Made by a program: the position numbers and the translations under genes
In this document: positions 1 through 43,086 of the stretch, piece by piece
How positions within the stretch are numbered: position 1 is the stretch's first letter
Layout: each line of letters opens with the position of its first letter
NCBI GenBank assembly: GCA_964427235.1
Contig: CAYRTN010000001.1
Span: 1-43,086 of the forward strand
DNA length: 43,086 bases
Reading direction: 5' to 3'
Origin: an uncultured Chthoniobacter sp.
GTDB taxonomy: Bacteria > Verrucomicrobiota > Verrucomicrobiia > Chthoniobacterales > Terrimicrobiaceae
The notes under the pieces: generated by a model
What the model saw: only the letters and a program-made list of their open reading frames with translations
Database searches by the model: none
Told to the model about the DNA's origin: nothing

Positions 1-55
1 AACAAGACCGTTTCTTGATAAAAAATAAATCTCATTTAAAATTGCGACAGGCGTT
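1..55. repeat. 55-nt exact terminal direct repeat, copy 1 (identical to 43032..43086)
   Basis: aacaagaccgtttcttgataaaaaataaatctcatttaaaattgcgacaggcgtt is present at both window ends. This is typical of a circular contig closed by a k-mer overlap, or of terminal redundancy. Confidence 0.95.
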
Positions 56-756
56 AGATCCGCACCGCACCCAAGCGTTGTGTTTGCCGTTCCCTTAATT
101 GCTTCGAATGGGAATGTAGCGTTACCTGTATTTTGAAAAAACTCAATAGACCTTGTGCCAAAGACATACAATATACCAGCACATGATAAAACTGTTATGA
201 TATTATCTGATTTTTGTGTTGCACTTGCAAAATCTAAAGATGAAAACGTGCGACCGTCAAGCAATGCCGATATAAAGAACTGTTGTGTACCCCTTCTGCG
301 AAATATAAAATAACCGTCCATATCGGTAAATGTTTTTGGATTATATGGTAAAGACGGATTATATAACGTACCAGACTCAAGAACTCTATAAACTGAATCA
401 ACTTGGTATTTCCATGAAAGAAACGCTATTTGACCAACGGAATTGTCAAGAATATTATAAACTTCCCCTGACGCTGTGGTAAAGGCATAATCTGCAACCA
501 AAGTACCCGTTAAATCGTATTTTCTTATTTTCGTAGTGCCCACAACATAATAAAAGCTATTTATATGTGTTAACCCTCTAACCTCTTCCCCTGTATCTAT
601 AAGTAAATCTAAACCACCTCTTTGACGCAATGTATATTCGCTTTCCTCCCCATATTGGTTAGGAATAGAATACATATTTTGCAATAACTGATTATTAGGG
701 TTTTTAGCACTGTTAACAGATACTTCTTTTGATAACGGTAAATTTATTTTTGGCAT
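1..756 (-). CDS. P22 gp10-like tail hub / packaged-DNA stabilisation protein, N-terminal 252 codons (gene wraps the window ends)
   Basis: ATG at 756 in a TAATG overlap with the upstream stop. Hand translation MPKINLPLSKEVSVNSAKNPNNQLLQNMYSIPNQYGEESEYTLRQRGG... stays open to nt 1 and continues in frame at 43031. FGTRSIEFFQNTG resembles P22 gp10 FGSSTIEYFSLTG. Confidence 0.8.
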   Translation of the reverse strand, partial: MPKINLPLSKEVSVNSAKNPNNQLLQNMYSIPNQYGEESEYTLRQRGGLDLLIDTGEEVRGLTHINSFYYVVGTTKIRKYDLTGTLVADYAFTTASGEVYNILDNSVGQIAFLSWKYQVDSVYRVLESGTLYNPSLPYNPKTFTDMDGYFIFRRRGTQQFFISALLDGRTFSSLDFASATQKSDNIITVLSCAGILYVFGTRSIEFFQNTGNATFPFEAIKGTANTTLGCGADLTPVAILNEIYFLSRNGLV

Positions 757-1700
757 TATTCAAACATTCCATTGCTAAACCCTACATTAATAGAGGCGTC
801 CTCAAAATCATGCAATCGTTGCAATGAATACAATCTCTCAACTTCAACACCTAAGATACTTGATTTACTGTAAAAACCATTTTGCATAGCAAGTCTTTGA
901 GCAAGACTATAAATGATAATATCATAAAATTCATTCGGAGATGGTATTGTATCAGTCGAACTGTCTAAATCATCAAAAGGTCTTTCAATGACAAGATTAA
1001 TATATTGACTCTCATTTTCTGATTGCGGATATAAAAACAACCGCCCTTCGTCTATCTTGGGCTGATAATAAAATTGTGTTGGATTGCCTGCCATAGCTTT
1101 ATAGGATAACGCTTGGTATTCATTCATAGACATCTTGCTAATGCCTATCTCTGAATTAGTGTCATATTGCACCGTAGCGTCTGAAATGCTTAAAGGTTTA
1201 GTAATGCGTGCTGTATATGAATACACCTTAGAATCAACGGTAAATGCACTTGTGAACGCACTTGATACAGTTATCACATTGCCAACAACATTACTTACAG
1301 TACGCCACACAAACACATTGCTTGAATTTAATACCCCGATTGTATCAGATATTGCAATTCCTGTACCGCTTGCAACCGTGAATGATGTATTTCCTGATGC
1401 AATAGCGACGCTTAATGTTGTTTTAACAAAATCACTTTTTAAAATAAACCTATCACCCGATTCGGATAGCGTATATTCTGATTGTCCAATCGTAGGAATT
1501 AAGACAGCACTCTCATAAGACCATAGACGCAAACCTCGCGACATAAGGTTTTTCATAATGATATTTAATGATTGTGAAGCATTAGTAATTTCAGTTGATG
1601 ATAATGTTTCGACAGGGTCTATGATAGACGCTAGCCTGTATGCTTCATAAATAATATCATTACGGGTAAGGCTAAAATTAAAGTTATTCGAGACCGACAT
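756..1700 (-). CDS. virion protein, putative head-to-tail adaptor (gp4 position, immediately upstream of gp10-like hub)
   Basis: 314-aa ORF with ATG start, translationally coupled to neighbours. Function inferred only from its position between the head genes and the hub. Confidence 0.45.
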   Translation of the reverse strand: MSVSNNFNFSLTRNDIIYEAYRLASIIDPVETLSSTEITNASQSLNIIMKNLMSRGLRLWSYESAVLIPTIGQSEYTLSESGDRFILKSDFVKTTLSVAIASGNTSFTVASGTGIAISDTIGVLNSSNVFVWRTVSNVVGNVITVSSAFTSAFTVDSKVYSYTARITKPLSISDATVQYDTNSEIGISKMSMNEYQALSYKAMAGNPTQFYYQPKIDEGRLFLYPQSENESQYINLVIERPFDDLDSSTDTIPSPNEFYDIIIYSLAQRLAMQNGFYSKSSILGVEVERLYSLQRLHDFEDASINVGFSNGMFE

Positions 1701-6617: not shown

Positions 6618-8583
6618 TTACTGCTCCCATATCAGGTGTATTGCGTAGGTTTATCTCTTGTAATTGTCTATCTAAGTCAGCGTTCTCAATGTCTGATATT
6701 GCTTTAATTCGGTCAATCTCTAATGTATCTTGTTTTATCTCGTTATCTAGCAACGCTTTAAGAGTATCAATTTGATTTTTGTTATCTGCTATTGCTTTTT
6801 GAAGTTCTAATTGTGCCTTGCCAAGTTCTAATTGTCCCATCATTAACGGATCAGGCTGTGCTTGCTGTGCTTCTGGTGGGTCTGTCAAATAATAATCAGG
6901 GTTATCAATACCCATTAATCGCAATACTTCTTTTTGTGTACGCTTGGCATCATAAAAGGGGTTTTGCATCTTTGACTCAAAGAATTGCACTTGTGCCATT
7001 TGTCTAGCATTACCAATCGAATCAATGTCTTTGTTTGGTATAAATACTATCTCTTTGTTATCAAATATCGACTGGTTAATTTGTATGCCTGTTAATTCTG
7101 CATATCTCTGTGTATTAAAATACTTCTTGTTTGCTTCGACAAGTGCATTAACTTCTGATTTAAACGCCGTAAAGAAACGCTTAAGAACTGCCCGAAGCTT
7201 CTTAGTGCTTTCCTCTGCCATAATCATTGCTGTAGTTGGGGCTGTATTTGCAGTAAAGTTTTCACTGTTCATCTGATTCAGGTTTGCCAATGATGATGAT
7301 TTACTATCGAGTAATTGCATCATAGCAATAAGCGTTTGACTTGGCTCTGGGTTAGGCATAGGCATAAACGAATCACGGATTGATTGTCCTGTCGCTCTAA
7401 TACCTTTCCACTCGCCCGCACTAAAATTAAATACACGGTCTTTGGTATTAATATCAGCACTAAACACACCACCACCTAAAGCGGACTTTGCCCCTGCATC
7501 AATGGTTAAATTAAGGATTGACGATAAAGCATTTTGAGACATCTCTAATATTGAACCAAAGCCTTTGCCCCAAAAATCATTACTCGGCAAGAATGAATAT
7601 TTACAATAACGAGGCTTTGCTTTGATAATGATTGCTTTGTTATTTTCACCACGAACAATCTTATCAAAGTTTTTTTCCAATCTTAATAAACACGAATCAT
7701 CTTTACAAACCCAAGCGATATATGGTTCAGGATAGCCGTCACCGTCTAAATCTAATCGCAAACACATTTCTATGATTGAGTATTCGTCTTCGTCGTCATC
7801 GTCAGGCTTTTCCTCTGCATCATCGTCAATAAAATACTTTGACTGATATAAAGGCTCAATATCGTCTTTACAATATACCGCACATTCTGACAACCTCTTT
7901 GCACCGTCAATCGTCTTTGCACCCTTATTAACAACAAAATCAGTAGCTTTAATGACTTTATGCACGGGTATATTTTCAATCGGACAATGCGAATACTTGC
8001 GAATAACAGTGCCTTGGACGCACAATAGCTTTGCTAATTCTTGTGTTTCCTCCACCCAATCAGGCATATCTTCGGTTAACTGATAATTGAGGATTTTAAC
8101 TGCATCTTCTGAATCCATTAATGCTTTGTGGTTTTTAATGCGTGCTTCTTTTATTGCATTAATTACAATAGGCTTGGCATCTTGTCCCTCTGGTATCTGT
8201 CCATTAACCGCAAGCATGACAGCCATATCTTCTTGGCTTGGCACGTCCTTTGCATTTTTAGACCGCACAGGCTCATCAAGAGGGAACTCATTAATAAACG
8301 TTGTTAAAAACTCATTACTTGCGTCCGTTAATAGCATGTAATGCAGGCGAGATCCTCCATTTATGCGTGCTGTCCGTAAGTAATCCTCATCATTATCACA
8401 TACGCCAAGATAACGCTTCATTTTTTCATGTGCTGTATTACAATCCATTTTATCTTGGTCATAAAATTCAACAATACCCGTTGCAATAGCGGTTTTATCT
8501 ATATCAGATAACACCGTAACAAGGTTTTCTGTATTGTCTATTTGTGTAGGTTTTAATAGTTTTTGTATTTTAATATCCGACAT
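6499..8583 (-). CDS. portal protein (694 aa)
   Basis: Largest head-module ORF, directly downstream of terL with a 14-nt overlap. Acidic stretch DDDAEEKPDDDDEDE and a coiled-coil C-terminal region. Called from size and position. Confidence 0.7.
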   Translation of the reverse strand: MSDIKIQKLLKPTQIDNTENLVTVLSDIDKTAIATGIVEFYDQDKMDCNTAHEKMKRYLGVCDNDEDYLRTARINGGSRLHYMLLTDASNEFLTTFINEFPLDEPVRSKNAKDVPSQEDMAVMLAVNGQIPEGQDAKPIVINAIKEARIKNHKALMDSEDAVKILNYQLTEDMPDWVEETQELAKLLCVQGTVIRKYSHCPIENIPVHKVIKATDFVVNKGAKTIDGAKRLSECAVYCKDDIEPLYQSKYFIDDDAEEKPDDDDEDEYSIIEMCLRLDLDGDGYPEPYIAWVCKDDSCLLRLEKNFDKIVRGENNKAIIIKAKPRYCKYSFLPSNDFWGKGFGSILEMSQNALSSILNLTIDAGAKSALGGGVFSADINTKDRVFNFSAGEWKGIRATGQSIRDSFMPMPNPEPSQTLIAMMQLLDSKSSSLANLNQMNSENFTANTAPTTAMIMAEESTKKLRAVLKRFFTAFKSEVNALVEANKKYFNTQRYAELTGIQINQSIFDNKEIVFIPNKDIDSIGNARQMAQVQFFESKMQNPFYDAKRTQKEVLRLMGIDNPDYYLTDPPEAQQAQPDPLMMGQLELGKAQLELQKAIADNKNQIDTLKALLDNEIKQDTLEIDRIKAISDIENADLDRQLQEINLRNTPDMGAVNGQQADNNPQQLNGDGGIPQGVNADERGNIPTGISTPQG

Positions 8584-23246: not shown

Positions 23247-23404
23247 TCTCTATCCTTTTCAATTTCATTCACTGGTTCACCGCAAAAATAACTAGTCCAA
23301 ATCCGTTTTCTGAATTCTGGGGTTAAATTATCAGGTAATTTACAACCACAATTACCCACGCAATCAGGCGATGTACAGTAGGTTTTGTCAAAATTTATTG
23401 TCAT
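23243..23404 (-). CDS. Cys-rich micro-protein (53 aa, below track threshold)
   Basis: ATGA coupling to the DUF262 gene stop. MTINFDKTYCTSPDCVGNCGCKLPDNLTPEFRKRIWTSYFCGEPVNEIEKDRE. Confidence 0.55.
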   Translation of the reverse strand: MTINFDKTYCTSPDCVGNCGCKLPDNLTPEFRKRIWTSYFCGEPVNEIEKDRE

Positions 23405-23889
23405 GCTCTCTCCCCCTCCTTATGTGCTGTACCACTAAAATTCATTAGATTATAATAGTTTTTAAGATATTCTATGTCGTCACTTTGTGTGACATATTGA
23501 GCGAATGAAGACACATTAAAACGACCGTGTAAATCCTTAACTTCTGAATATAATTTACCATATACAGAAAATTTATCGTTAATATATTCATTGATTGCAT
23601 TGATGCGTTGCTGCCCATCAATTAAAATATTATCTAATTCTTTATTTTTAGAATTTTCATTAATCGTAAATGTGCCAATAGGTATGCCGACCCACAAAGA
23701 CTCAATTAGTTTTATTTTTTGTTCTTGCGTCCACACTAAAGGGCGTTGAAAATAGGGTATTTTATAACCCAATATCGTATTTGGTAAATGTCCGTACTCT
23801 CTATTATTATGAAATAAAGATGACAACTGAACATTATAATGCTGTCCGAGATTAATTTTTGGTGGTATCATTCTTATTCTCCAATTCAT
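23401..23889 (-). CDS. short stand-alone DUF262 (ParB/Srx-like, GmrSD N-terminal type) protein (162 aa)
   Basis: YFQRPLVWTQEQKIKLIESLWVGIPIGTF and IDGQQRINAINEY (DGQQR motif). No DUF1524/HNH half is present. An alternative start is ATG 23871. Confidence 0.75.
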   Translation of the reverse strand: MNWRIRMIPPKINLGQHYNVQLSSLFHNNREYGHLPNTILGYKIPYFQRPLVWTQEQKIKLIESLWVGIPIGTFTINENSKNKELDNILIDGQQRINAINEYINDKFSVYGKLYSEVKDLHGRFNVSSFAQYVTQSDDIEYLKNYYNLMNFSGTAHKEGERA

Positions 23890-31044: not shown

Positions 31045-31142
31045 TTTATTCTCTCCAATTTTACCTTGGCATCATTGCCTCGATAAAATAAGAATACCAA
31101 AAAGAAGTTAAGGAATAGTTAATATTATTTTTATTATTTTTA

Positions 31143-31171
31143 TTGACAATATTATTTTTATGTTTTATATT
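31143..31171 (+). promoter_or_regulatory. consensus sigma70 promoter
   Basis: TTGACA (31143..31148), a 17-nt spacer, then TATATT (31166..31171). It lies inside the 5' end of the track ORF 31160..31420, which argues for the later ATG at 31211. Confidence 0.8.
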
Positions 31172-31176
31172 CCTGT

Positions 31177-31194
31177 TATCGCAATTAAGCGATA
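31177..31194. promoter_or_regulatory. inverted repeat operator candidate just downstream of the -10
   Basis: TATCGC-aattaa-GCGATA, starting 6 nt after the -10 hexamer. Confidence 0.55.
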
Positions 31195-31210
31195 TATAAG
31201 GGTAACAAAA

Positions 31211-31420
31211 ATGGAATCACCGCTATTACAACAATTTCTAAATATCATTTCTAGTTTTTCACAATCAGAAACTAAAAAAGAAAACAAGGTATTCGATGCT
31301 TTGATAGGTAAGCCAGTCTTAACAAGACACAACCTTGAGGGGGTGGATTTTGGATATTTTGACTCATACAATGATGTTGGATTTGTTTTAAAAGATAACG
31401 GCGACGGTAACAGCAAATGA
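31211..31420 (+). CDS. hypothetical small protein (69 aa)
   Basis: ATG 31211 downstream of the promoter and operator. MESPLLQQFLNIISSFSQSETKKENKVFDALIGKPVLTRHNLEGVDFGYFDSYNDVGFVLKDNGDGNSK. No motif recognised. Confidence 0.6.
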   Translation: MESPLLQQFLNIISSFSQSETKKENKVFDALIGKPVLTRHNLEGVDFGYFDSYNDVGFVLKDNGDGNSK

Positions 31421-31560
31421 AAAAAATATCGCTTGATATACCTGATGATGATTATAATAAATTGAAAGATTTAAAGAAAAATCATCATATTAACATATCG
31501 TCTTTTGTATCTGAGGCTATAAAAGAAAAGCTAGGCAGAGAAAAACCACTTGCAAAATAA
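31417..31560 (+). CDS. ribbon-helix-helix (CopG/Arc/ParD-like) DNA-binding protein (47 aa, below track threshold)
   Basis: ATGA coupling. MKKISLDIPDDDYNKLKDLKKNHHINISSFVSEAIKEKLGREKPLAK shows a beta-strand / helix / helix pattern. Confidence 0.65.
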   Translation: MKKISLDIPDDDYNKLKDLKKNHHINISSFVSEAIKEKLGREKPLAK

Positions 31561-31604
31561 ATTACAAGTGGCATAATTAATCTGTAGGCGTTATACGATT
31601 TAAT

Positions 31605-31640
31605 CCCCCTATGCAGTACAACTCTTAGGGGGTTATTTAT
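31605..31640 (+). terminator. rho-independent terminator
   Basis: CCCCCTA-14 nt-TAGGGGG followed by TTATTTAT. Confidence 0.6.
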
Positions 31641-31674: not shown

Positions 31675-31710
31675 AAAACCCCTTACATGGTTGTGCCATT
31701 GAGGGGTTTT
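31675..31710. terminator. bidirectional terminator
   Basis: AAAACCCCT-18 nt loop-AGGGGTTTT, with T/A runs on both sides. Lies 8 nt after the DUF2829 gene stop. Confidence 0.7.
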
Positions 31711-31717
31711 ATCTTAT

Positions 31718-32011
31718 TTAAGCAATAACCCAATCATCAGCTAAAACATCGGTTTGTGATGCAAGCCAAGGCTCAACGGTATCTTGTGCGGTTTTCATAG
31801 CAATATATGCTTGATACGGCACTAAATCATTGGGGAATACCCCTGCCATTGTATTGAGCGTATTGTTTGAAGCTGGATATTTGTTTTCAGGAACATAATA
31901 TAGAAACATTCCTTTGCCATTCCAGCCAGAACGAGCAACCTTATGTCCTGCTTTTAAATGGCGTATAGCAAAACCAAAATCAAATTGCCTTACCTGTATT
32001 CCGTCAGTCAT
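31718..32011 (-). CDS. DUF2829 family protein (Thoeris anti-defence Tad2-like, 97 aa)
   Basis: FGFAIRHLKAGHKVARSGWNGKGMFLYYV...YIAMKTAQDTVEPWLASQTDVLADDWVIA matches the DUF2829 hallmark (KVAR.GWNGKGM...MKTADG...PW.ASQTD.LAEDW). RBS AAGGAGAGG. Confidence 0.8.
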   Translation of the reverse strand: MTDGIQVRQFDFGFAIRHLKAGHKVARSGWNGKGMFLYYVPENKYPASNNTLNTMAGVFPNDLVPYQAYIAMKTAQDTVEPWLASQTDVLADDWVIA

Positions 32012-32026
32012 AACCTCTCCTTAAAT

Positions 32027-32071
32027 TAAAAAAGACCCCTCGATTTGAGCATATTCAGAGGCTTGAGGGGT
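32027..32071 (-). terminator. rho-independent terminator separating the late operon from the DUF2829 gene
   Basis: On the minus strand, ACCCCTC...GAGGGGT stem followed by C and a T6 run (plus-strand A-run at 32028..32033). Confidence 0.7.
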
Positions 32072-32086
32072 TCTTAATTTATTCTA

Positions 32087-32824
32087 TCATGCTTTATTGA
32101 GGTTACGCAATACATTTGTTATTGCGATTTCAATATCACCATTACGAGAATGACGTTCATTGTTATCACATTTATCACGCAAGCGGTTATTCTCAATGGT
32201 TAAAGCAAGTTCGCGAGTCTGCGCTGATTGCTTTAAATCCAATTCACGAATACTAGCAGATTGTGTCAATAGCGATTTTTGAGTTTCACAACAACATTCT
32301 GCTATTTGACGTGCTAACTCACTGGTATTTTTACAAGCGTCAAGTTTTACATCACCAAAGCCACGGATTAATTCCTCGCGTGTTTTTGCTTCTGATTTTT
32401 CATTCTCTAAAGATAAATGAGCAATTTGTTTGCTTAAATCATTATTCACTTGCAATAACTGATAACGATTTTGTGCAACTTCTTGACGTACATCACTAAA
32501 CCCAGTTGACGTAAAGAATTTATTGTCACCAATTTCTTTAGATAAATCATGCTGTGTATTTAACACGTCACGAGATACATTGGTAACGTCGTGTGCAAGT
32601 CTTGATTGTCCATCGGTAATTAATGCCCCAATAGAATCAAGATTTGTGCGGACATCGTTTTCACTATCATAGATAGATTTTACGATTTCACGTTGTCCAG
32701 CGAGTAAGTCATTATTATTATCTTGATTATTATATCCATGTCCATTGTTTAAATGGCACGGTGCGTCCGATTGTATCGTTAGCATGATTTTTATGTCCAA
32801 GCCTCGTGATTGAGGCATTACCAT
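32087..32824 (-). CDS. coiled-coil protein with Cys cluster (245 aa), unknown function
   Basis: Long heptad-like Gln/Asn/Asp/Leu-rich region. Unusual IAECCCETQKS cluster plus two further Cys residues (DACKN, DKCDN). Confidence 0.65.
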   Translation of the reverse strand: MVMPQSRGLDIKIMLTIQSDAPCHLNNGHGYNNQDNNNDLLAGQREIVKSIYDSENDVRTNLDSIGALITDGQSRLAHDVTNVSRDVLNTQHDLSKEIGDNKFFTSTGFSDVRQEVAQNRYQLLQVNNDLSKQIAHLSLENEKSEAKTREELIRGFGDVKLDACKNTSELARQIAECCCETQKSLLTQSASIRELDLKQSAQTRELALTIENNRLRDKCDNNERHSRNGDIEIAITNVLRNLNKA

Positions 32825-32857
32825 TGTACTCTCATTTTAGGTATTTAGATATGTTAT

Positions 32858-33064
32858 TTACTCGTTCTCTCGTATTAATTTTCTTAAATTTTTACATTCT
32901 TCTCTTGTTAAAAATAATGTGATTTCTTTTGTGTGTGGTGATATTTGATTAATATAAATATTACCGCCAATGTCAAGTTTAATACCGCCTGCCTTTGAGC
33001 CTGTATTAACGTTCTCATTGTTTTCACGTTCAATGTATATAAATTCACCAGATTGTAATTTCAT
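32858..33064 (-). CDS. hypothetical small protein (68 aa)
   Basis: ATGA-coupled to the holin-like gene. No TM segment. Confidence 0.6.
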   Translation of the reverse strand: MKLQSGEFIYIERENNENVNTGSKAGGIKLDIGGNIYINQISPHTKEITLFLTREECKNLRKLIRENE

Positions 33065-42385: not shown

Positions 42386-43086
42386 CTTCGACCTCTAAGC
42401 GTATTTTGCAACTTGCAATACTGATAGAAACATCATTAGATACCTCAAATTTATAAATTCTTTTTCTTGAAATACCTAAATTTCTAAATTCAATCTTGCG
42501 TCCGTATTGCGTATTTGTGCCGAGTGATAGACTTCTTTTTGTGCTATAGGTAAAACCACCGTCATCGGAATATGACATTTCTATTATTGGTGTAATATCT
42601 ACCCCCGCCGTTCCTGTGGTTATGACAGGCTGTATCGCATGATGTATAACACGTTTGCCGTCACCTTGAATAACGGTTGTGGTAAATACTCTCTCAATGT
42701 CATCGCCATCATCGGTGGTATTATCTTGATTGATAAAATAAACCTTGTTACCGATTGCACAAATTGTGTTCTTAGTGTTTTCCTCTAAGAACGCATTTTG
42801 AACAAATCGAGGTCTCCAGTATGTATAACCCTCGCTTGTTCTTTTATGCCATTCTAAGGTCTGTAAATTACAACATACTGTAAACCCTGCGTCCTCTACG
42901 GTAATACCATAAAACCATTGTCCATTTTCACGGAATGAAAACCCAATCGCATTAACAGCACTAATATTTTGAAATAATTTATCAATGCTTTCAGTTGATA
43001 TTTTTGTAAAGCTATATCCACTTATTTTATAAACAAGACCGTTTCTTGATAAAAAATAAATCTCATTTAAAATTGCGACAGGCGTT
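42375..43086 (-). CDS. P22 gp10-like tail hub protein, C-terminal part (continues from 1..756; 43032..43086 duplicates 1..55)
   Basis: Open frame from the window end down to the stop at 42375. The C-terminus ...GRKIEFRNLGISRKRIYKFEVSNDVSISIASCKIRLEVEDDE parallels P22 gp10 ...WKRVGRIRRLIGFKLRVITKSPVTLSGCQIRLE. Confidence 0.8.
   Translation of the reverse strand, partial: TPVAILNEIYFLSRNGLVYKISGYSFTKISTESIDKLFQNISAVNAIGFSFRENGQWFYGITVEDAGFTVCCNLQTLEWHKRTSEGYTYWRPRFVQNAFLEENTKNTICAIGNKVYFINQDNTTDDGDDIERVFTTTVIQGDGKRVIHHAIQPVITTGTAGVDITPIIEMSYSDDGGFTYSTKRSLSLGTNTQYGRKIEFRNLGISRKRIYKFEVSNDVSISIASCKIRLEVEDDE
43032..43086. repeat. 55-nt exact terminal direct repeat, copy 2
   Basis: Identical to 1..55. 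Confidence 0.95.

Follow-up and report, generated by a model that had tools for sequence, protein, structure and literature searches.

The window studied here, a phage-derived stretch of 43,086 nt to which all coordinates refer unless another contig is named, carries after its lysis genes a short minus-strand region in which an RNA motif of the abiF family precedes a gene for a Tad2-like protein. We propose that this region is a self-contained anti-defence cassette, combining a decoy abiF RNA with a Tad2 sponge of glycocyclic ADP-ribose (gcADPR), a reading that we consider to have an even chance of being correct. A wider proposal, to which we give somewhat less than even weight, is that phages carry orphan abiF RNAs as decoys for AbiF toxins and that here decoy and sponge have come to share a cassette of ~0.4 kb, the sponge gene having replaced the toxin gene of a captured operon. 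The elements follow one another in the order promoter-like element, abiF RNA, U6 tract, ~29 nt including the ribosome-binding site (RBS), and tad2. The Tad2 gene adds one member to a known family that already counts thousands; what is new is the element upstream of it.

The tad2-like coding sequence (CDS) appears in the list of open reading frames (ORFs) at 31718..32011 on the minus strand, stop codon counted, with an ATG start, and encodes the 97 aa announced by the first-pass annotation of this DNA. The DUF2829 motifs quoted there are present as well: KVARSGWNGKGMF at residues 24-36, IAMKT at 70-74 and PWLASQTDVLADDW at 81-94. The Pfam search that it called for matched PF11195 'Tad2-like' at 91.1 bits (cutoff 25; E 6.5e-26), the alignment spanning profile positions 2-72 of 73, while PHROGs assigned the protein to phrog_872 and phrog_1048, both annotated as of unknown function. 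Significant PDB sequence matches were confined to Tad2 proteins (HgmTad2/AcrIIA7, ModTad2, SptTad2 and SPO1 gp34.65; E 4e-20 to 1e-13). An AlphaFold2 model of the single chain, built on an alignment of 52 close homologs (mean predicted local distance difference test score ~90.2), displays the Tad2 fold of helix alpha1, an antiparallel beta-sheet and a short C-terminal helix. A structure comparison had also been suggested at first pass; with this single-chain model, all 24 Foldseek matches in the PDB with E <= 0.001 were Tad2 structures (E 1e-9 to 7e-7), the next match standing at E 1.2, and the gcADPR-pocket residues are kept. ModTad2 is structurally nearest (root-mean-square deviation, rmsd, 1.6-3.0 Å). 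The 97-aa product is a member of the Tad2/DUF2829 family by profile, fold and pocket residues, and its role as a sponge is well supported. It is 31-53% identical to every characterised Tad2, the nearest experimentally tested homolog being Tad2_68 (53%). No cultured-phage homolog of at least 60% identity was found, the best among the matches listed reaching 55.6%, and the protein falls in a large, mostly metagenomic Tad2 subfamily.

The pocket of the protein points to its probable ligand. SPO1 Tad2 contacts 1''-3' gcADPR through W25, N26, I63, T65, W73, T78 and D79, and D67, H71 and S76 coordinate waters (bioRxiv 10.1101/2023.05.01.538930), and the gcADPR residues of HgmTad2 are W21, N22, G23, M76, A78, T82, V84, W87, L88, S90, T92 and D93 (bioRxiv 10.1101/2023.11.15.567273). 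In HMMER and MAFFT alignments, SPO1 W25, N26, T65, W73, S76, T78 and D79 correspond to W30, N31, T74, W82, S85, T87 and D88 of the window protein, and HgmTad2 W21, N22, G23, M76, T82, V84, W87, L88, S90, T92 and D93 all align with identical residues; the pocket positions are W30, N31, G32, M72, T74, T78, V79, W82, L83, S85, T87 and D88. Differences are limited to the water-coordinating D67 and H71 of SPO1 Tad2, which become Q76 and E80. By alignment, the window protein has the canonical gcADPR pocket defined by the SPO1 and HgmTad2 residues. SPO1 Tad2, HgmTad2 and Tad2_70, 71, 82 and 83 inhibit type I Thoeris (Table S2, Hadary et al., bioRxiv 10.1101/2025.08.24.671296), and these six are all of the tested carriers of the pocket motif W[LV][AP]SQ[TA]D in the alignment; the type II Thoeris inhibitors ModTad2, Tad2_68 and Tad2_76 carry W[TV]PS[VIS][SG]D instead. 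Since the window protein reads WLASQTD, as the type I inhibitors do, gcADPR is its best-supported candidate ligand. The Thoeris-type signal that the first-pass annotation had named as target is, on these residues, most likely the one bound. Family membership alone does not imply a host with Thoeris, because CBASS, Pycsar and Thoeris types II and IV are further systems inhibited by Tad2 proteins (bioRxiv 10.1101/2025.08.24.671296).

The segment VPENKYPASNNTLNTMAGVFPNDLVPYQ had been singled out as an insert between the conserved blocks. It is not a special feature of this protein, being the variable beta2-beta5 segment found in every Tad2. In HgmTad2 and SptTad2 this segment is 35-41 aa long and builds a cyclic-dinucleotide pocket (bioRxiv 10.1101/2023.11.15.567273). 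The window protein has 28 aa here, and the cyclic-dinucleotide residues R31, S47, F70 and N85 of HgmTad2 fall on V40, a gap, Y66 and E80; the alignment shows neither the long insertion nor the residues of an HgmTad2-type dual sponge. Within the subfamily, nine positions of the segment (V40, P41, Y45, P46, N50, T54, G57, V64 and Y66) are invariant across 52 sequences, and ModTad2 binds cUMP at its A-C interface, which corresponds to the variable-segment interface of the model. Because the segment is so strongly conserved, the model is nearest to ModTad2 and ModTad2 binds cUMP there, a second pocket may exist at this interface.

Upstream of tad2 lies a hairpin with a 7-bp GC stem and a 23-nt loop, followed by six T. 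It had been described as a hairpin-plus-T6 terminator (32027..32071) separating tad2 from the late genes. The hairpin and the T-run exist, but the element is not a plain operon-closing terminator: an Rfam scan matched 32035..32070, minus strand, to the abiF RNA family RF03085 with 41.2 bits (cmscan; gathering score 37). The alignment runs over the whole model (positions 1-37 of 37), with E values of 6e-6 for 901 nt and 7.8e-4 for 120 kb of sequence; all other Rfam families stayed below their gathering scores in the region. The conserved loop and bulge bases, AAGCCUCU.AA...GCUCAAAUCG, all agree with the RF03085 consensus and are invariant in the three phages compared below. The U6 tract (32028..32033, minus), read from the sequence directly 3' of the stem, forms a terminator-like tail. 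The folding z of the hairpin, -0.78, makes it no more stable than shuffled sequence, and a terminator scan did not call it; since motifs linked to genuine AbiF genes are likewise unremarkable (0.02 and -0.56), the weak score is no evidence against an abiF element. Judged by its match to the family, the element is an abiF-type antitoxin RNA and not merely the terminator of the late operon.

The abiF RNA (RCd22/AbiFr) is a noncoding RNA located upstream of abiF (Abi_2) genes and is the antitoxin of AbiF, a HEPN RNase that serves as toxin of a type III toxin-antitoxin or abortive-infection system and is a proposed Cas13 ancestor (PMC12373285; PMC12737573; PMC13064643). In cis, RCd22 represses the toxin gene through riboswitch-like premature termination; in trans, it binds the toxin itself and thereby neutralises it (PMC12373285). 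In the window, the motif is not the 5' leader of an abiF gene; tad2 lies downstream instead. No Abi_2 gene turned up in the window, either in a Pfam search of its ORFs or with jackhmmer and viral AbiF seeds, and the 245-aa gene upstream of the motif belongs to no detectable family; the motif thus counts as an orphan. That the 245-aa product might be a divergent AbiF was considered and rejected, Pfam, NCBIfam, PDB sequence and jackhmmer searches all being empty and the gene being absent from the relative L004.

Putative expression signals surround the motif. An extended -10-like element, TGATAGAAT (32081..32089, minus), overlaps the stop codon of the 245-aa gene and ends 9 nt before the stem in both the window and L004; it is a candidate promoter, with a weak -35-like TTGCGT at 32105..32110, 18 nt upstream. 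The counterpart in the more distant phage L080 is a TTGACA-17-GATACT promoter (10/12) that ends ~10 nt before the stem. At 7890..7940 of L004 the TGATAGAAT-type element is duplicated, a 22-nt promoter-like unit, AAATATGATAGAATAAATTAA, standing in tandem just upstream of the abiF motif; the duplication may be a scar left by recombination at the edge of the cassette. On the tad2 side, the strong RBS claimed at first pass was found as the Shine-Dalgarno sequence AAGGAGAGG (32014..32022, running from 32022 to 32014 on the minus strand), read from the sequence with 5 nt between its GGAG core and the ATG; its GGAGAG is invariant in L004 and L080. In the consensus fold of both the window and L004, pairing is possible between the U6 tract and the Shine-Dalgarno sequence (CUUUUUU with AGGAGAG; 32012..32034, minus), and it could couple termination or read-through to tad2 translation. 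Directly after the tad2 stop codon stands the bidirectional intrinsic terminator noted earlier, at 31675..31712, which proved strong on both strands (-22.7 kcal/mol and z -4.8 on the minus strand, -19.7 kcal/mol and z -3.9 on the plus strand) and is conserved in L004.

Conservation of the cassette was followed in three phages, namely (i) the window; (ii) L004, a relative of 41 kb with 93% identity to the window in its endolysin and 82% in its Tad2; and (iii) L049/L080, a more distant IMG/VR contig of 41.9 kb in which several early genes are 53-64% identical. The nucleotide homology block shared by the window and L004 begins at ATGATAGAATAAATTAAG, overlapping the stop codon of the window's upstream gene, and spans the motif, U6, RBS, tad2 and three downstream hairpins, with different genes on both flanks. 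L049/L080 likewise has the abiF motif followed by U6 and an RBS, and its Tad2, of the long form, shows 82% identity within the domain. The sequence upstream is unrelated there, and the role of endolysin falls to a non-homologous amidase. Against the gathering score of 37, the motif reaches 40.2 bits in L004 and 43.6 in L049, and in all three phages the cassette stands directly after the lysis module. Between them, the 60-nt leader is 90-93% identical, the CDS 83-85% and the third codon positions 66-75%. One stem pair has changed in a compensatory manner from U-A to A-U (ACCCCUC/GAGGGGU in the window and L004, ACCCCAC/GUGGGGU in L080), and the sole variable loop base is at a position that is unconserved in the abiF family.

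These comparisons modify the moron-like, insulated layout first ascribed to the gene. Insulation stands, as the cassette has promoter-like elements and terminators of its own; the picture of a sporadic moron finds no support, since the cassette is in all three phages and it is the flanks that vary. The GC content of tad2 is 0.398 and that of the genome 0.354; with the other genes of the phage spanning 0.20-0.43, the composition of tad2 is not deviant. Elsewhere, in 80 IMG/VR and 27 genome loci scanned with three substitutions allowed, no Tad2-subfamily gene besides that of L080 had an abiF motif beside it, and the abiF-tad2 linkage is thus lineage-specific; blastn of the leader against cultured phages gave only short, non-significant matches. 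The sole find of one metagenome scan was L160, a 1-kb contig in which the motif follows a homolog of the L080 upstream gene, as judged by shared C-terminal sequence, with no tad2 in the 100 nt of contig that remain. Since L160 has the motif without tad2 within this distance, we argue that the abiF RNA is of value on its own.

Orphan motifs extend well beyond this lineage. A scan of IMG/VR with a generic abiF loop pattern gave 41 contigs (L039-L079), and 12 of the 16 that were run against Rfam reached the gathering score. Abi_2 accounted for 4 of 30 distinct first downstream ORFs, the rest sharing no common family, and orphan abiF RNAs therefore look common in phages. The genuine Abi_2 loci L044 and L073 consist of a promoter box, the motif, a U-run and a toxin ORF 25-33 nt later; the U-run recurs after the motif in many other viral instances. 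With 29 nt between motif and ORF, the tad2 cassette has the same geometry, and by this arrangement of the sequence tad2 occupies the toxin slot of an AbiF locus. AbiF loci are known downstream of prophage lysis modules (PMC12373285), and a precedent for a phage hairpin that inhibits AbiF has been reported in the sk1 cos site, where the hairpin is unlike abiF RNA (PMC13064643). The orphan pattern among viral contigs fits a common, undescribed form of RNA-based counter-defence. As further observations on these contigs, orphan motifs precede C5 DNA methylases (L047, L063), a P22-like portal (L058) and small ORFs of unknown function, or lie beside tRNA arrays (L051, L056, L072) or a permuted tmRNA (L041).

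The data presented above have led us to propose a model in which host RNA polymerase would start at the TGATAGAAT promoter, a few bases before the 36-nt abiF hairpin. The GC stem and U6 would terminate part of the transcripts, releasing a small RNA of ~45 nt, while read-through would pass the strong RBS to yield tad2 mRNA. The Tad2 product, most likely a tetramer, would sequester in its canonical pocket the 3'cADPR (1''-3' gcADPR) made by the TIR protein of type I Thoeris. For the RNA, the most likely role is that of a trans-acting decoy antitoxin that keeps a host AbiF toxin inactive during infection, so that one short cassette would counter two defences. We infer the decoy role from two parallels, the trans activity of RCd22 and that of pseudo-ToxI against ToxIN. 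Pseudo-ToxI, of phage phiTE, is an RNA antitoxin mimic by which the phage escapes ToxIN, as shown experimentally.

The same observations admit simpler accounts of the RNA. If tad2 were a plain moron between two terminators, expressed by read-through or from an unseen promoter, the hairpin would merely end the late operon and its likeness to abiF would be inconsequential. A GC stem with U6 is terminator-like, the element stands at the very end of the late/lysis gene string in three phages, and abiF motifs with U-runs do terminate prematurely in AbiF loci (PMC12373285). Such an account is nevertheless unlikely: the 23-nt loop is atypical, the hairpin escaped the terminator scan and folds no better than shuffled sequence, L080 has a strong promoter directly upstream of the element, and all conserved Rfam loop bases have been kept though synonymous sites diverged by 25-35%, a constraint that no terminator needs. 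The riboswitch-like repression of a downstream gene by RCd22 through premature termination (PMC12373285) raises another account, in which the abiF RNA is a cis leader that sets or times tad2 by attenuation, possibly sensing binding or cleavage by host AbiF, and has no trans decoy role. The pairing of U6 with the Shine-Dalgarno sequence and a motif-to-ORF spacing equal to that of genuine AbiF operons agree with it; L160, which keeps the motif without a nearby tad2, and the scarcity of Abi_2 or of any common family among downstream viral ORFs do not, and we regard a purely cis-acting leader as decidedly unlikely. Lastly, tad2 may have replaced the toxin of a captured AbiF locus by recombination and left a leader with no selected function beyond its promoter and RBS context. 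A relic of this kind would explain why tad2 sits exactly in the toxin slot after lysis genes, where AbiF loci are known in prophages (PMC12373285), and why the three carriers are related phages. It is very unlikely, however, given a leader more conserved than the CDS, and far more so than synonymous sites, with a compensatory change in its stem.

The assignment of the ligand also has competitors. The protein could be a Tad2-fold sponge whose main ligand is other than gcADPR, and the candidates are the His-ADPR of type II Thoeris, the N7-cADPR of type IV, cUMP or cCMP of Pycsar, or a cyclic dinucleotide in a second pocket at the beta2-beta5 segment. The functional diversity of the family (bioRxiv 10.1101/2025.08.24.671296), the type II activity of Tad2_68, the proximity of the model to the cUMP binder ModTad2 (rmsd 1.6-3.0 Å) and the nine invariant residues of the variable segment all favour such a ligand. 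The pocket motif, which is that of the type I inhibitors and not that of ModTad2, Tad2_68 and Tad2_76, speaks against it, as do the unconserved HgmTad2 cyclic-dinucleotide residues and the short segment (28 aa against 35-41; bioRxiv 10.1101/2023.11.15.567273); binding of these ligands would moreover be compatible with binding of gcADPR as well. On balance we doubt that gcADPR is secondary, and taken jointly the named alternatives hold only a small part of the probability. An AcrIIA7-type anti-CRISPR function is barely credible. The best PDB sequence matches (E 4e-20) are entries named AcrIIA7, and some phage records label homologs of the 97-aa protein 'anti-CRISPR protein', but AcrIIA7 is HgmTad2, whose anti-Cas9 activity was irreproducible in vitro and in vivo (bioRxiv 10.1101/2023.11.15.567273).

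Several points weigh against the combination of AbiF decoy and gcADPR sponge itself. The stem is supported within the lineage by a single compensatory pair, and since the three phages are related, the cassette may reflect one inherited event and not three independent ones. The candidate promoter of the window consists of an extended -10 and a weak -35 (3/6) in AT-rich DNA, and a promoter scan did not call the site. The window carries a single abiF motif copy; RCd22 needs two for full activity in C. difficile. The ligand range of Tad2 proteins varies in the family, and the nearest tested homolog, Tad2_68, inhibits type II Thoeris. Finally, searches did not identify the host of the phage, and hence its AbiF or Thoeris content.

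Compared with known systems, the protein resembles SPO1 gp34.65, HgmTad2/AcrIIA7 and ModTad2 in its domain, its size below 100 aa, its N-terminal helix and antiparallel sheet, its gcADPR-pocket residues and its being phage-encoded. It differs from them in joining a beta2-beta5 segment like that of ModTad2 and Tad2_68 to a WLASQTD pocket like that of SPO1 Tad2 and HgmTad2, and from HgmTad2 in having neither the long insertion nor the cyclic-dinucleotide residues. The RNA shares with abiF RNA/AbiFr/RCd22 the full-length model match, the loop and bulge bases, an upstream promoter, the U-run and an ORF ~30 nt later, and with some abiF loci a position downstream of a phage lysis module. Unlike abiF RNA and RCd22, it precedes tad2 and not abiF, no Abi_2 was found with it, and the motif is present in one copy instead of the two of RCd22; it also resides in an apparently lytic phage and not in a bacterial, plasmid or prophage defence locus. 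The parallel with pseudo-ToxI is one of concept: a copy of a type III antitoxin RNA, on a phage without the toxin, that would neutralise an abortive-infection toxin of the host. The two differ in family (ToxIN against AbiF), in that pseudo-ToxI was established by experiment and the role of the window RNA by inference, and in the physical coupling of the window RNA to a sponge gene. An orphan abiF small RNA without assigned function has been recorded as an Rfam match in the lytic cyanophage S-CREM1 (PMC9964418). It resembles the window element in these respects; unlike it, the S-CREM1 match is in a T4-like cyanophage, near cis-regulatory RNAs, with no link to an anti-defence gene and no decoy role proposed.

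The literature searched, from which Zilberzwige-Tal et al. 2025 was absent, held no orphan abiF RNA joined to a sponge gene and no suggestion that phages use abiF RNAs as decoys. Should the orphan abiF RNA neutralise AbiF, it would be, within that literature, the first bona fide phage-encoded mimic of an AbiF antitoxin and, after pseudo-ToxI, the second example of an RNA decoy against type III toxin-antitoxin defences, and it would show that RNA and protein counter-defence can sit on one transcript. Exchange of the toxin gene would be a route from a defence operon to a counter-defence cassette. The cassette offers a directly testable RNA of 46 nt, and Rfam abiF matches in phages that have no Abi_2 gene provide a rule for finding anti-defence loci.

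Relatives of the window Tad2 display further arrangements. Many of the closest homologs are ~163-166 aa long (L049 1353..1847, P0003, P0004, P0009 and others) and carry a conserved N-terminal domain of ~75 aa with the pattern GTK..AKPMNRQEYN..RGW...GYLVEY...SWSPKKQFEDAYKP. Pfam and NCBIfam searches with this domain gave nothing and a PDB sequence search nothing significant; it may be another, fused sponge domain. Identity with Acb4 (PF13876) was rejected, there being no Pfam match and only an E value of 1.3 in BLASTP against the Acb4 neighbour in L005. At 645..1270 of that contig, which belongs to a different phage, two sponge genes are paired upstream of the terminase: a Tad2 homolog 76% identical to the window protein comes directly after an Acb4 (PF13876) gene and overlaps it. 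In the window phage, Pfam scans found no other sponge of the Acb4 (PF13876) or Sequestin (PF21825) families.

The window has an exact 55-bp terminal direct repeat (1..55 and 43032..43086), which indicates a circular assembly and a complete genome of ~43.0 kb. It encodes small and large terminase, portal, capsid protein, ejection proteins, a tail fibre with an SGNH domain and an M15 endolysin, together with primase, helicase, RecT/exonuclease, single-stranded DNA-binding protein (SSB) and a DNA methylase. No integrase was seen in the window, and the lifestyle is apparently lytic. The same phage recurs nearly unchanged in many samples. Searches bearing on its kin and host gave little: in INPHARED no phage DNA matched beyond a 78-bp stretch, IMG/VR yielded nothing when scanned with the terminase or the exact hairpin, no tRNA genes were found in the phage, and its primase and portal share no more than 20-28% identity with their counterparts in assorted aquatic and other phages. 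Among genomic Tad2 homologs, the closest (71-73%) are in three Psychrobacter genomes, which do not indicate the host since they have essentially no other genes in common with the phage. A whole-genome Pfam scan also showed a Cpn10/GroES-like co-chaperonin, two GerE/LuxR-type helix-turn-helix proteins, a VRR-NUC nuclease and the SSB.

Around the cassette, two genes of no detectable family, one of 68 aa and the coiled-coil-like one of 245 aa, lie between the lysis genes and the abiF motif (32087..33064, minus). Both are absent from the close relative L004, and it is these genes, rather than tad2, that form the variable insertion at the site. Beyond the bidirectional terminator, a second hairpin, CCCCCTA...TAGGGGG (31603..31634, strand-neutral, read from the sequence), separates tad2 from a convergent plus-strand gene pair and has an equivalent with a different stem sequence in L004. 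A third hairpin with a T-run (31545..31572, minus), called by the terminator scan, overlaps the 3' end of the convergent 47-aa gene and is kept in L004 with compensatory differences. The convergent pair (31160..31560, plus) encodes products of 86 and 47 aa, both absent from L004, and two strong, divergent promoters are paired at 31122..31171. Weakly matched by DUF6290, CcdA and ORF56, which are families of the antitoxin type (E 5e-4 to 7e-3), the 47-aa product is 55% identical to the product of a gene adjoining tad2 in L049 and could be another antitoxin-like accessory protein. At 23401..23889 (minus), antisense to the surrounding early genes, a 162-aa protein consists of a GmrSD_N/DUF262 domain only (E 6e-19) and is 64% identical to an L049 gene product.

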